The translations under genes and the position numbers were made by a program. From NCBI GenBank assembly GCA_011605725.1, contig JAAOZP010000014.1:76141-140140 (forward strand): a DNA stretch of 64,000 nt, read 5' to 3'. Of this stretch, positions 2,408 to 16,443 are shown one piece after another; position 1 is the stretch's first letter, and the number at the start of each line of letters is the position of its first letter. Source of the stretch: Nitrososphaerota archaeon. Its GTDB lineage: Archaea > Thermoproteota > EX4484-205 > JAAOZP01. The notes beneath the pieces are model-generated. The model did no database searches. It was given only the letters and a program-made list of their open reading frames with translations, and had not been told where the DNA came from.

Positions 2408-2576
2408 AAAAAGTTAATATAGTAGTGGAGCGGTCTCCGCTGAGGAGGTGTATAGTGCACATGGCCAGCAACGCCCAAAGGGGGCGAGACTACCTGCGTT
2501 GCAGAGACAGCGACACCTCTATCGGAGTCTGCTGAAAAACAATATTGTTTTAAACCTGTTTTAGGAGGGTTTCGTA
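2408..2576 (+). promoter_or_regulatory. leu operon promoter and structured 5' leader
   Basis: A-rich BRE plus TTAATATA (2414-2421); SD AGGAGGTG (2443-2450); motif shared with the ilv leader. Confidence 0.7.
2455..2535 (+). CDS. Putative leader peptide (uORF) MHMASNAQRGRDYLRCRDSDTSIGVC
   Basis: Strong SD 4 nt before GTG; aligns without gaps to the ilv uORF; single Leu at codon 14. Confidence 0.6.
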   Translation: MHMASNAQRGRDYLRCRDSDTSIGVC

Positions 2577-4112
2577 ATGGTTTGGAGAGGATATATTGCT
2601 GAGGCTGAAATACCTGGCAGGGTGATTCTTTTCGACACTACTTTAAGAGATGGTGAACAGACTCCTGGAGTCGCGCTTACGCCCGAGGACAAGCTTAAGA
2701 TAGCGAGACAGCTGGACTTGCTTGGAGTACCCGTATTGGAAGCAGGCTTTCCAGCAGCGTCGCGCGGCGAGGAGGAGGCTATTAAGCAGATAGCTAGAGA
2801 AGGGTTGAACGCGGAGGTCGCTGCCTTATCCAGATGCGTGAAGGAGGATGTTGAGAAGACTGCTTCAACCGGTGCACGGAGAATACATCTTTTCATAGCA
2901 ACCTCAGACATACATTTGAATAAGAAGCTGCAGATAAGCAGGGATGAAGCTGTATGCAGAGCGGTTGAATCCATAGACCTTGCTAAATCCTACGGTATGA
3001 AAATAGAGTTTTCAGCTGAGGATGCGACTCGGACGAGCATCGATTTCCTAGTGGAGTTTTACAGGAGGGTTGAAGAGGCGGGAGCAAGCATAGTCGACAT
3101 TCCTGATACTGTTGGTGTTGCAACACCCTTTGCTATGAGGGAGATTGTTAAGAGGGTTCGCAAAGCCCTGAGGATCCCGGTTGCAGTGCACTGTCACAAC
3201 GACATGGGTCTAGCAGTTGCGAACACGCTTGCAGGCATTGAGGGCGGAGCCTCTGAGGCGCATGTAACAATTAATGGACTTGGGGAGAGAGCAGGCAACG
3301 CGAGCCTAGAGGAGGTGGCGGTTTCCCTGAAAGTATTGTATGGTGTTGAAACAGGCTTAAAGTTTAAAGAGATATACAACACTTGCAGGCTTGTCTCACT
3401 GATAACTGGCGTAGCAATACCTGTGAATAAGCCTATAGTTGGAGAAAACGCTTTCTCCCATGAGAGCGGTATCCATACTCACGGCATACTGGCGTCTCCA
3501 GAGACTTACGAGCCTATAGACCCTGGGTTTGTTGGAGCTAGGAGAAAGCTGGTAGCTGGAAAGCACGCCGGTGTCCACGGGATTTCAGCGCAGCTTGAAG
3601 AAATGGGGTACAGGCTTAGTGAGGAGGAGTTGAAACAGGTTCTTAAAATAGTTAAGGATATTGGCGACAAGGGTAAGAAGGTTACTGACGCGGAACTCGC
3701 CTCGATAGCTGAAAGCGTTATAGGGTACGGGGTCGGTGAGAAGGATCGCATCGAGCTTGAAGAGCTTCTGGTGGTCACTGGGTTAAACACGACGCCGACA
3801 GCAGCAATAAAGATAAGAAGGGGTGAACAGGCTTGGAGAGGAGCGGAGTTCGGAGTGGGGCCGATAGATGCTTCGATGAAGGCAGTCAGCAAGCTTCTTG
3901 GAGACCTGGTTAAGATTAAGCTTGAAAGCTTCAGGTTGGAGGCAATCACGGGAGGCACGGATGCGCTTGCAGAAGTTACGGTCAGGGTTTCAGATGAAGA
4001 AGGGAGGAGTGTGACTGCGAAGGGATTCAGCGAGGACATTGTGCTAGCAGGGGTTTACGCGATATTAAACGGGGCTAACAGGCTTCTGCAGATTAAGAGG
4101 GCTGGTAGATGA
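2577..4112 (+). CDS. leuA: 2-isopropylmalate synthase (LeuA/CimA family)
   Basis: DTTLRDGEQTPG, HCHND, GERAGNA and C-terminal regulatory domain; upstream of leuCD. Confidence 0.85.
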   Translation: MVWRGYIAEAEIPGRVILFDTTLRDGEQTPGVALTPEDKLKIARQLDLLGVPVLEAGFPAASRGEEEAIKQIAREGLNAEVAALSRCVKEDVEKTASTGARRIHLFIATSDIHLNKKLQISRDEAVCRAVESIDLAKSYGMKIEFSAEDATRTSIDFLVEFYRRVEEAGASIVDIPDTVGVATPFAMREIVKRVRKALRIPVAVHCHNDMGLAVANTLAGIEGGASEAHVTINGLGERAGNASLEEVAVSLKVLYGVETGLKFKEIYNTCRLVSLITGVAIPVNKPIVGENAFSHESGIHTHGILASPETYEPIDPGFVGARRKLVAGKHAGVHGISAQLEEMGYRLSEEELKQVLKIVKDIGDKGKKVTDAELASIAESVIGYGVGEKDRIELEELLVVTGLNTTPTAAIKIRRGEQAWRGAEFGVGPIDASMKAVSKLLGDLVKIKLESFRLEAITGGTDALAEVTVRVSDEEGRSVTAKGFSEDIVLAGVYAILNGANRLLQIKRAGR

Positions 4113-5374
4113 CGGGTTTAACAGCAGTACAGAAGGTGCTTTCCAGGAAAACAGGCAGGCCTCGTGTGGAACCTGGTGAAATAGTTGAGGCTAAGGTGGA
4201 TTTCCTAATGTTGCACGAGGTAACTGGGCCACTGGCTGTCGAAGAGTTTGAAAAAATCTCTGGAAAAGTCTGGGACCCAAGTAGGGTGATAGTGGTTTTC
4301 GACCATGATGTTCCGCCGAGCACGATAGACTTAGCCAACCAGATGAGAAGGATGAGAAGCTTCGTTAAGAAACACGGGGTAAACAATTTTTTCGAGATAG
4401 GCAGGGGAGGTATTGCTCATCAAGTTCTCTTCGAAGAAGGCTTCGACATGCCTGGCTTCCTGATAGTCGGCGCGGACAGTCATACTTGCACAGCTGGGGC
4501 GACTGGCGCAGTTGGAATAGGGGTCGGCTCTACTGATGCTGCTGTTGTCCTAGCAACCGGAGAGATATGGTTGAGGGTTCCTGAAACACTGTTGGTTGAG
4601 GTCAAAGGCAGGCTTAGGAAAGGCGTTTTCGCGAAGGATGTTGCTTTAAGTATCGTTGGGAGAATTGGCAGCAATGGAGCAACCTATAAGGCTCTGGAGT
4701 ATTCAGGTGAAACAGTAAGCATGATGTCTCTTTCTGAACGCCTTACTCTTGCAAACCTCTCCGTGGAGACTGGCGCTAAAACCGGGATTGTTCAGACAGA
4801 TTCTAAAAGCATTGAGTATGCTGAGAACTCTGGAAGACGCAGCGAGCTACTGGATGTTAGGAGCGACCCCGACGCGTGCCTGGAGAAAATCGAGATTGAT
4901 GTTTCAAACTTGGAGCCTGTTGTAAGCCTGCCGCATAGCGTGGATAATGTTAAGCCCGTTGCAGAAGTTGAAGGCCTTGAGATAGACCAGGCTTTCCTAG
5001 GTTCCTGCACGAACGGGAGGCTGGACGATCTTCTCGTAGCCTTCAAGATACTTAAGGGGAGAAGGGTCGCGCCGAGCGTGAGGCTGGTGGTTAGCCCGGC
5101 TTCAGTCAAGGTGTATGCGGAGGCTTTGAGAGCAGGAGTCGTCGAGGAGATTGTGCGGGCAGGAGGAATAGTGACAAGCCCAACATGTGGTCCCTGCCTC
5201 GGAATGTCGAGGGGAGTTCTTGCTGAAGGAGAGGTTGCAGTTTCAAGCAGCAACAGGAACTTTATAGGCAGAATGGGTGATAAGAGGAGTAAAGTGTTCC
5301 TCGCTTCCCCGGCGACAGTGGTTGCGTCAGCGGTAGAGGGAAGAATAGCTGATCCAAGGAGGTTTCTGCCTTGA
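4109..5374 (+). CDS. leuC: 3-isopropylmalate dehydratase large subunit
   Basis: DSHTCT, GSCTNGR, CGPCLG and NRNFIGRMG aconitase-family motifs. Confidence 0.92.
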   Translation: MTGLTAVQKVLSRKTGRPRVEPGEIVEAKVDFLMLHEVTGPLAVEEFEKISGKVWDPSRVIVVFDHDVPPSTIDLANQMRRMRSFVKKHGVNNFFEIGRGGIAHQVLFEEGFDMPGFLIVGADSHTCTAGATGAVGIGVGSTDAAVVLATGEIWLRVPETLLVEVKGRLRKGVFAKDVALSIVGRIGSNGATYKALEYSGETVSMMSLSERLTLANLSVETGAKTGIVQTDSKSIEYAENSGRRSELLDVRSDPDACLEKIEIDVSNLEPVVSLPHSVDNVKPVAEVEGLEIDQAFLGSCTNGRLDDLLVAFKILKGRRVAPSVRLVVSPASVKVYAEALRAGVVEEIVRAGGIVTSPTCGPCLGMSRGVLAEGEVAVSSSNRNFIGRMGDKRSKVFLASPATVVASAVEGRIADPRRFLP

Positions 5375-5868
5375 AGATACGCGGTAGGATTATTAGGCTT
5401 GGAGACAACGTGGATACTGACGTGATAATACCTGCAAGATACTTGGTGACTCACGATGCGGAGGTTCTTGCGAAACATGTTTTCGAAGACTATTATCCTG
5501 AATTCAGGGCAAAGGCTTCTGGTGGAGCGATAATAGTTGCCGGAGAGGACTTCGGGCTGGGGAGCTCAAGAGAGCATGCAGTAATAGCTTTGAAACACTC
5601 CGGTGTGAAAGCGATAGTAGCTAAGTCTTTTGCAAGAATCTTCTACAGGAATTCTATCAACCTGGGTCTTCCCGCGCTCGTCTTAAGAAGTAATGAGGGT
5701 TTTGACAAGCTTAAGGATGGGGATGAGGCTGAGCTTGATGTCTCCAACGGGGTTTTGACGATTATCAGAACCGGGGAGAAGTTTTCCTGCGATAAAATGC
5801 CTGAATTCATGATGAAAATAATAGAAGCAGGAGGCTTAATAAACTATTTTTTGAAGAAACACGGATGA
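5371..5868 (+). CDS. leuD: 3-isopropylmalate dehydratase small subunit
   Basis: DNVDTDVIIPARYL, GSSREHA, SFARIFYRN. Confidence 0.93.
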   Translation: MKIRGRIIRLGDNVDTDVIIPARYLVTHDAEVLAKHVFEDYYPEFRAKASGGAIIVAGEDFGLGSSREHAVIALKHSGVKAIVAKSFARIFYRNSINLGLPALVLRSNEGFDKLKDGDEAELDVSNGVLTIIRTGEKFSCDKMPEFMMKIIEAGGLINYFLKKHG

Positions 5869-5916: not shown

Positions 5917-6777
5917 ATGAAACTATTACTGTTGCAGCGGAGAGAAGCAGTTAGAAGGGAGGCTGTTGGCAGTTATTCCTGCGAGCAGTGTGGGCGTCCA
6001 CTGAGCCCTGAATACAAGTTCTGCCCAGCCTGCGGAACCCCGCGGAGAGGAGTCTCCTACGTTAGGAGGGTTTCAACAGGCAACCCGGCTATAGACGAGA
6101 TTCTGGAGGGTGGTTTCGAAGTGGGTAAAACATATCTGCTCGCCGGGGAGGCTGGAACCGGTAAGACGATTTTCAGCTTACAATACCTCTTACACGGGGC
6201 TAAGAATAATGAGCCCGGAATATATGTTACGATAGACGAGAGGCCGGAGATGCTTGTTAGAGACGTGAGGAACTTCGGCTGGGATCTTCAGCCGCTCATA
6301 GAGACAAAGAAGCTTGCGATACTCCCGGTTAGGAGATACTTCACCTCCAAGATGTGGGGGAGGGAAATGGACACTATAGTTAACAACATAATAGAGGAGC
6401 TTGACAGGAGGAGGAGGGAGATAGGGGCTAAGAGGCTTGTCATAGATCCTATAGCCCCGTTGGTAACTACTTATTCGAACGAGGTTGCATGGGTTAGAGA
6501 ATACATCAGGAGCCTCATATTCTCTATTGAGGAGAAGCTCGGTGTAACCACGGTTATAACGTCAGAAGTCCCTACTGGGGAGAACATGATGAGCAGGTAT
6601 GGTGTTGAAGAGTTTCTGGCGAGCGGCGTAATATTACTATCCCTGTCTAGAGTTGGGAACTCCATAATAAGGACGATGTTTATAAGGAAGATGCGCTGGA
6701 CTGCTGTGAACCCAACGATCTACAGGTTTGAAATAGAAAGGGGTCGTGGAATAGTTCTTAAAGAACCGTTAAGCTAA
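5917..6777 (+). CDS. KaiC/RAD55-family ATPase with N-terminal zinc ribbon
   Basis: CEQC...FCPACG ribbon; GEAGTGKT Walker A; RLVIDP; IRKMR. Confidence 0.85.
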   Translation: MKLLLLQRREAVRREAVGSYSCEQCGRPLSPEYKFCPACGTPRRGVSYVRRVSTGNPAIDEILEGGFEVGKTYLLAGEAGTGKTIFSLQYLLHGAKNNEPGIYVTIDERPEMLVRDVRNFGWDLQPLIETKKLAILPVRRYFTSKMWGREMDTIVNNIIEELDRRRREIGAKRLVIDPIAPLVTTYSNEVAWVREYIRSLIFSIEEKLGVTTVITSEVPTGENMMSRYGVEEFLASGVILLSLSRVGNSIIRTMFIRKMRWTAVNPTIYRFEIERGRGIVLKEPLS

Positions 6778-16262: not shown

Positions 16263-16443
16263 TTGAAACACCTCTTGCAAACGGCTTTTTGAAAACCACT
16301 GTTTTCTCTAGCGGAGGCTGGGTTTGCAGCGGGACTCCTGCAGTTGGTGGACGGTGTCCCGCCCCCTTGGAGCGTGAATATTATGGTACACTCAGCGCAC
16401 CTCCTAAGCAGTGTGCCCATTGAGAGGCCTATATTAATCTTTC
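16263..16443 (-). promoter_or_regulatory. ilv operon promoter and structured 5' leader
   Basis: GAAAGA-TTAATATA (TATA at 16437-16430); motif shared with the leu leader. Confidence 0.7.
16308..16391 (-). CDS. Putative leader peptide (uORF) MYHNIHAPRGRDTVHQLQESRCKPSLR
   Basis: SD AGGAGGTG (16405-16398) 6 nt before GTG; aligns to the leu uORF; single internal Val at codon 14. Confidence 0.6.
   Translation of the reverse strand: MYHNIHAPRGRDTVHQLQESRCKPSLR

Follow-up and report, generated by a model that had tools for sequence, protein, structure and literature searches.

A conserved leader shared by two branched-chain amino acid operons of Brockarchaeota is a candidate ribosome-based amino acid sensor

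Ribosome-mediated attenuation is textbook bacterial biology. In E. coli leuL-leuABCD and ivbL-ilvBN, and in the Corynebacterium ilvB-II leader, the leu or ilv genes are preceded, within the 5' leader, by a short ORF that has its own ribosome-binding site and carries codons for the end-product amino acid; the two archaeal leaders described here have both properties. In ivbL the pair of amino acids involved, Val and Leu, resembles that of our ilvB leader. A different use of sequence within an ORF is found in prfB, whose pause and frameshift stimulator is a Shine-Dalgarno (SD)-like hexamer, AGGGGG, inside the ORF and with a constant short spacing to a critical codon; whether such internal sequences make ribosomes pause is disputed. 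To our knowledge, archaea have few cis-regulatory leaders of whatever type, and we found no archaeal leader-peptide attenuator in the literature searched, although such an absence is no proof. Mycobacterial attenuators with poly-Cys upstream ORFs (uORFs) use runs of codons (bioRxiv 10.1101/834739), and the Corynebacterium ilvB-II motif was first taken for a structured RNA but is actually a uORF (PMC10272879). The locus described below parallels this last case, since here too a putative RNA structure motif is organised around a uORF.

The two leaders lie in a 64,000-nt stretch of DNA (the window; contig JAAOZP010000014.1 of GenBank assembly GCA_011605725.1) from an uncultured Nitrososphaerota archaeon; among leuA-bearing records, those nearest to it are hot-spring MAGs of Candidatus Brockarchaeota or Thermoproteota. 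A first-pass annotation had described in each leader two hairpins, A and B, that were said to covary and to exclude each other, and had proposed that they form a conformational switch driven by the position of a ribosome or by direct sensing of tRNA or a ligand. Every string that it quoted, whether for the two hairpins, the AU-rich repeats, the anti-SD-like tracts or codon 14, was found again at its position. Judged by the alignments of orthologs, the leader shared by both operons is conserved and the competing, covarying pair of hairpins is not. We prefer a reading, to which we assign a probability of about one half, in which each leader is a short upstream ORF that would act as a ribosome-dependent regulator of its operon.

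Setting and distribution of the leaders

The features of the two leaders and their operons are listed in Table 1. In both operons the SD sequence of the leader ORF (SD1) lies ~22-25 nt downstream of the TATA-like octamer. From the usual archaeal distance between TATA box and start, we predict that the leu transcript begins at ~2442-2446, at the edge of SD1, and the ilv transcript at ~16405-16408. The interval between the leu TATA box and SD1 also holds an inverted repeat, GGAG-N4-CUCC (2427-2438), which has 7-bp arms in one ortholog (locus L002 of genome G006) and is lost in others; lying over the predicted start of transcription, it might serve as an operator, but it is not consistently palindromic among the orthologs. 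At the other end of the leu operon, a gene for a KaiC-domain ATPase (5917-6777) directly follows leuD.

Table 1. Features of the leu and ilv leaders and operons, with positions in the window
Feature	Position	Strand	Remarks
TATA-box-like octamer, leu promoter	2414..2421	+	sequence reading
SD1, leu leader ORF	2444..2450	+	perfectly complementary over 7 nt to the 16S rRNA 3' end; invariant in 14/14
leu leader ORF	2455..2535	+	GTG 2455 or ATG 2461 to TGA 2533-2535; same frame in all orthologs
Hairpin A (leu)	2472..2486	+	2472-2476 pairs with 2482-2486; 5 pairs, 5-nt loop
Core motif, codons 9-12 (R-G-R-D)	2479..2490	+	SD-like G-run and rare Arg codon
Hairpin B (leu)	2483-2494 with 2524-2533	+	stable in this genome only
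Codon 14 CTG (Leu), candidate sensor codon	2494..2496	+	CTG in all leu leaders examined
Anti-SD-like box, leu (mimic of the 16S 3' tail)	2513..2520	+	conserved in all leu leaders
AU-rich inverted repeat after leu leader stop	2536..2551	+	followed by short T-runs; nearer clade only
SD2, leuA ribosome-binding site	2563..2568	+	sequence reading, leu alignment
LeuA-LeuC-LeuD genes (leuA-leuC-leuD)	2577-5868	+	leuA ATG at 2577
TATA-box-like octamer, ilv promoter	16430..16437	-	octamer identical to that of the leu promoter
SD1, ilv leader ORF	16398..16404	-	7-nt perfect 16S complement; invariant in 16/16
ilv leader ORF	16308..16391	-	GTG 16391 to TAG 16310-16308, 27 codons; kept in 16/16
Hairpin A (ilv)	16360..16374	-	16374-16369 pairs with 16365-16360; 6 pairs, 3-nt loop
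Hairpin A-prime (ilv)	16346..16366	-	pairing of the G-run with codons 14-16, the Val codon among them; competes with hairpin A
Hairpin B (ilv)	16363-16353 with 16338-16328	-	stable in the 9 nearest genomes only
Codon 14 GTC (Val), candidate sensor codon	16350..16352	-	GTC in 16/16 ilv leaders
Anti-SD-like box, ilv	16313..16318	-	conserved in 16/16; five copies lie past the leader stop codon
AU-rich inverted repeat after ilv leader stop	16291..16306	-	nearer clade only
SD2, ilvB ribosome-binding site	16269..16275	-	sequence reading, ilv alignment
IlvB-IlvN-IlvC-IlvD genes (ilvB-ilvN-ilvC-ilvD)	16262-11422	-	ilvB ATG at 16262-16260

Whole-genome searches of the 16 further members of the genus recovered homologs of the leu leader in 13 and of the ilv leader in 15, and wider searches by motif and locus added two more leu leaders. 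We aligned 14 leu leaders (alignment A1) and 16 ilv leaders (A2) from 16 Brockarchaeota genomes of the same genus, this genome included; the whole sample amounts to one genus plus one outlier, so its sequences are not independent. The 12-nt core of the leaders has exactly two copies in the 2.2-Mb genome, one per leader. A longer pattern gave two matches per genome across the genus, while controls were near zero.

Beyond the genus, the motif pattern was searched in all 26 genomes of the class and was confined to the genus itself and to one genome of a second family (G017), where it stands before ilvB. The regions upstream of leuA and ilvB in other genera of the order contain no leader except this one. 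Among the 80 nearest leuA loci across GTDB, the motif occurs in 13 Brockarchaeota-type loci only and is absent from the 67 other archaeal loci. One further match in the class, in genome G018, sits in GC-rich, coding-like sequence and was rejected as chance. A pattern scan of metagenomes (at least 120 stretches) gained no diversity, as the matches listed all look like chance.

The G017 leader (locus L044 on contig C76, ~1355-1500) is the only copy found outside the genus. Its SD is different, consisting of the GGUGAU portion of the complete SD, and it has an ATG start and a shortened N-terminus; its peptide reads R-G-R-Y-P-V, and a T6 run and then the ilvB SD come after it. An alternative frame from GTG TAC would run into ilvB. 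The G-run and a GTC 9 nt later are kept in an open frame in this distant copy, and hairpin A has lost its 5' arm.

The leader ORFs, their peptide core and codon 14

All 30 aligned leaders have an SD, a start codon, a single frame relative to the core and an ORF of 20-29 codons, the ilv ORF being only 20 codons long in the distant clade. The 16S rRNA tail of this genome, which SD1 complements, reads ..CACCUCCUA. The ORF starts with a GTG 6 nt past SD1 or, where that GTG has been lost, with an in-frame ATG two codons on (12 nt past SD1), and ORFs of different length differ by multiples of three. No excess of third-position substitutions was seen in the leader ORF among the aligned orthologs, and the +1 frame of the leaders is nearly open too, so that openness of the frame does not discriminate. 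The case for coding thus rests on the conservation of SD, start, frame and indels, from which we predict that the leader ORFs are probably translated.

The leader peptides share a core, N-A-x-R-G-R-D, in which one ortholog has a conservative change of D to E; outside the six-residue core, both the sequence and the length of the peptide vary freely. The codons of the core are frozen though they are minor or rare in the neighbouring genes, where CGA accounts for 1% of Arg codons and CGG for 3%. The other fixed minor codons, with their usage in the same genes, are GGG (21%), CTG (22%), GTC (19%) and CAA (13%). That synonymous sites are frozen in spite of such usage points to an additional constraint on the nucleotide sequence or on its decoding.

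These observations bear on the idea that the leader ORFs encode small trans-acting proteins, binding for example LeuA, IlvB or a regulator, with RGRD as the functional peptide. Such a protein would account for a core that tolerates a single conservative exchange, but not for the variable sequence and length around it or for the frozen synonymous sites; moreover, the operon-specific codon 14 and the SD and anti-SD elements indicate that the leaders act in cis. We consider a function in trans very unlikely.

If the leader ORF is instead a ribosome-dependent regulator, as we prefer to think, codon 14 is the candidate for the position at which it would sense the amino acid: it is Leu before leuA and Val before ilvB. 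The SD-like G-run sits 9 nt before codon 14 in all 33 leaders, including that of G017, a spacing close to that of the AGGAGG that stands 8 nt before the leuA and ilvB starts in this genome. The ilv leaders have in addition a conserved CAA CTG (Gln-Leu) at codons 16-17. Cognate codons are few compared with classical attenuators, which have many more, with one Leu in most leu leaders and one Val plus one or two Leu in the ilv leaders, and neither leader ORF shows a run or an enrichment of codons for the regulating amino acids.

Hairpins and the anti-SD-like box

The switch proposed in the first-pass annotation requires that hairpins A and B share a GGGCG stretch and alternate, with a ribosome at codon 14, a tRNA or a ligand choosing between them. 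Codon 14, which that annotation placed at the inner end of the 5' arm of hairpin B, was found at 2494-2496 (CTG) and 16352-16350 (GTC). On paper both hairpins are possible in this genome, and the ilv hairpin B would be stable in the nine nearest genomes, with projected energies of -10.7 to -17.5 kcal/mol. However, the pair counts among orthologs, the energies and the consensus folds all stand against the switch, and we regard it as highly improbable. The leu hairpin B has a projected energy of -8.6 kcal/mol here and is unstable in all 13 orthologs (+1.3 to +12.7 kcal/mol), and the ilv hairpin B is absent from the other seven of the 16 genomes (+6.7 to +9.6 kcal/mol). Only 67% (leu) and 73% (ilv) of the alignment cells of hairpin B are paired, and most orthologs have uncompensated mismatches at its central pairs: in leu only one of 14 sequences keeps the A-U pair of columns 51/90 and two keep the C-G pair of columns 56/86, and five of the ten ilv pairs are disrupted in 7-10 of the 16 sequences. 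Hairpin B was never recovered by RNAalifold, by local MFE folds or by averaging the pair probabilities of the orthologs, at 37 C or at 65 C. Folding the two leaders of this genome places it in neither MFE structure, and their stability is unexceptional (z = -0.69 for leu and -1.46 for ilv). The shuffle score of the leu hairpin B (4/500) is no better than what unconstrained trees can give, and its 3' arm varies like ordinary codons before the conserved Cys-stop. On these alignments and energies, hairpin B is a lineage-specific accident.

The arguments that had been made for conservation of the hairpins at the RNA level fall with it. The compensatory change from A-U to G-C had been read from a comparison of the two paralogous leaders, and the ortholog alignments lend it no support; among the 14 leu and 16 ilv homologs no covariation was found in either hairpin, A having no compensatory pair at all. 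A lack of covariation was the outcome that the first-pass annotation itself had named as refuting its switch. The GGAGTC arm had been thought to be conserved as RNA because it lies in different reading frames in the two uORFs. The string occurs in only 1 of the 14 leu leaders and is shared with the ilv leader by coincidence, and since it is peculiar to this genome the argument from frames is groundless. Two paralogous leaders in one genome can thus mimic a 'compensatory' hairpin, and it takes orthologs to reveal the accident.

Direct sensing of tRNA or a ligand fared no better. A search of the window against Rfam returned two tRNAs only; the leaders stayed without a hit, both against the gathering score and when E values up to 10 were admitted, and this holds for the Rfam Leu, Thr, His and Trp leader models and for the T-box. 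We found no conserved multi-helix fold. The same core also stands before two operons that are expected to answer different amino acids, which argues against direct recognition of either a tRNA or a ligand.

Hairpin A is better preserved, with 94% (leu) and 99% (ilv) of cells paired. In leu its mean pair probability is ~0.85 and its energy is -7 to -10 kcal/mol in most orthologs, two being weak. No pair has changed on both sides in the 14 leu and 16 ilv leaders, and the RNAalifold consensus folds of the leaders have covariation terms of -0.32 (leu) and -0.83 (ilv) kcal/mol. Variation is found only in the 5' arm, at third codon positions and at the free codon 8, while the 3' half is invariant. 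In three leaders the hairpin is weakened without compensation (leu_G003, -1.3; leu_G005, -4.0; ilv_G001, -0.1 kcal/mol), and in G017 the sequence of the 3' arm is intact and the 5' arm is missing. Hairpin A is compatible with the data and may form in free RNA, and these patterns give no sign of selection on it as a structure. In the ilv leaders, the RNAalifold consensus contains a different hairpin, A-prime, with a mean probability of ~0.5. Its paired columns are invariant while its loop and bulge vary, and it is also able to form in the G017 leader.

The inverted repeat that makes up hairpin A could alternatively act in DNA, as an operator bound by a dimeric factor (e.g. of the Lrp type) that would block elongation ~35-45 bp downstream of the start. 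The repeat is indeed palindromic in DNA, and in this genome it occurs only at these two co-regulated operons. We nevertheless think an operator quite unlikely: the half-sites are unequal, with the 3' half invariant and the 5' half variable or absent, and a protein-binding site would leave the conserved ORF, codon 14 and the anti-SD-like box unexplained. A site so far downstream of the TATA box and the start would also be unusual for archaeal repressors, and this counts against it as well.

The AU-rich inverted repeats after the leader stops are present as they had been described, but they are conserved in the nearer clade only. In the leu repeat 84% of cells are paired and there is no compensation; in the ilv repeat 87% are paired, with two compensatory cells, each in a single sequence. 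A consensus scan of the leaders, which included these repeats, found no terminator-like site. Runs of T4-T6 precede SD2 in most leaders and are absent from four distant ilv leaders; an archaeal intrinsic (oligo-T) terminator serving as attenuator would call for a conserved run of about five T or more at this place.

The anti-SD-like tracts, by comparison with the other elements first described, proved to be conserved in all leaders. Each leader has a CCUCY box that is identical or near-identical to the tail of the 16S rRNA, and in five distant ilv leaders the box lies beyond the stop of the leader ORF, which indicates that it is conserved as nucleic acid and not as peptide. The distance from codon 14 downstream to the box is 22 nt in leu and 29-35 nt in ilv. 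It is complementary to SD1, to the G-run and to SD2, with duplex energies of -7 to -14 kcal/mol overall. On average, its duplex with SD1 has an energy of -12.9 kcal/mol in leu and -11.6 in ilv, that with the G-run -7.1 and -12.7, and that with SD2 -8.5 and -10.6 kcal/mol, respectively.

Consensus folds of the two sets of leaders differ in the partner chosen, the box pairing with SD1 in leu and with SD2 in ilv. The leu helix between box and SD1 has 8 bp, 99% of its cells are paired and its mean probability is ~0.65 (consensus folds and ensemble average); the ilv pairing of box and SD2 is predicted with a mean probability of ~0.4 (RNAalifold and averaged pair probabilities). Neither the candidate pairings of the box nor A-prime show covariation, because their columns are all invariant. 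In many leu leaders, a GGAG or AGAG that follows the box by 3-4 nt can fold back onto it as a 4-bp mini-hairpin (2520-2527 in the window). This may explain the SD-like appearance of the 3' arm of hairpin B.

With the box and hairpin A described, we can weigh the possibility that the leaders are structured cis-regulatory RNAs centered on hairpin A or the G-run, either riboswitches or protein-binding sites, in which the ORF is incidental. The invariance of the synonymous sites in the G-run and the CGR codons, rare as these codons are, would be expected of such an RNA, as would the high predicted probability of hairpin A in leu and the conservation of the box outside the ORF in five ilv leaders. 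But there is no covariation and no Rfam match, the 5' arm of hairpin A degrades in leu_G003, leu_G005 and ilv_G001 and is absent in G017, and a hairpin of 5-6 bp is too small for an aptamer. Nor would an RNA acting on its own need a conserved SD, start, frame and codon 14. We therefore judge this explanation to be unlikely.

Proposed mechanism and comparison with known systems

We return to our preferred reading, a leader ORF whose regulatory effect would depend on the ribosome. Control by ribosome position, as first proposed, survives here in part: the leader ORF, its G-run, the anti-SD-like tracts and both SD sites belong to what we consider the best reading, and hairpins A and B drop out as its elements. 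In a more specific form, which we put forward tentatively, the leaders may be the first archaeal leader-ORF amino acid sensors, in which a ribosome would be held at one Leu or Val codon and its dwell time would set access to the ribosome-binding site of the enzyme gene by way of the box that mimics the rRNA tail. What holds the ribosome in that case could be the internal SD-like G-run, the rare Arg codon or the nascent N-A-x-R-G-R-D peptide, a suggestion that we make with the same caution.

Stepwise, the progress of the ribosome over codon 14 would report the supply of the cognate amino acid, Leu or Val. It might pause there because charged tRNA is scarce, aided by the rare Arg codon and by pairing of the G-run with the rRNA tail, or the nascent peptide might arrest it when the amino acid is abundant. 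Its progress would in turn pick the partner of the box among SD1, the G-run and SD2, and the SD of leuA or ilvB would be left free or not. We also considered a simple stall at codon 14 in which the ribosome itself masks the box and rejected it on geometry, as the box lies 22-35 nt downstream. We found no wiring by which a simple stall at codon 14 gives the expected sign, namely a higher output of enzyme under shortage of the amino acid. In the arrest-peptide variant a stall would signal excess, and fewer ribosomes would then unmask SD2; as an alternative to this variant, the model may be missing an additional element.

From sequence comparison, then, the leader type is a candidate ribosome-based amino acid sensor with no archaeal counterpart in the literature searched. 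If this is true, the combination of one sensor codon, a peptide core and a mimic of the rRNA tail would be a new way of coupling translation to amino acid supply. By function, bacterial branched-chain leader peptides come closest, with arrest-peptide and translational attenuators as the second close group. Compared with the bacterial attenuators that they resemble in position and content, these leaders belong to an archaeal host, have a single sensor codon and not a codon run, carry a conserved non-cognate core, N-A-x-R-G-R-D, with frozen rare codons, and possess neither a GC-rich terminator hairpin nor a conserved pair of terminator and antiterminator. The use of one sensor codon in place of a run likewise separates them from the mycobacterial poly-Cys uORFs. 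T-boxes and amino acid riboswitches are also cis-acting leaders of amino acid operons, with a codon-like specifier; unlike these, our leaders have no match to a model, no multi-helix architecture and no covariation. The likeness to a stimulator of the prfB type lies in the hexamer, which is the same and also sits within an ORF, here 9 nt from codon 14 and thus near the 8-nt spacing of SD and start, but there is no slippery site and no in-frame stop to bypass. Finally, in arrest-based and translational attenuators, such as ermCL, the cat leaders, TnaC and the fungal arginine attenuator peptide, the ribosome is held in a leader ORF as it might be here, with the difference that the predicted footprint of a ribosome at codon 14 stops short of the box in our leaders. 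Like those systems, the leu and ilv leaders have a short peptide motif beside a critical codon and a complement of the downstream SD in or near the uORF, an arrangement with which translational control would be possible without a terminator.
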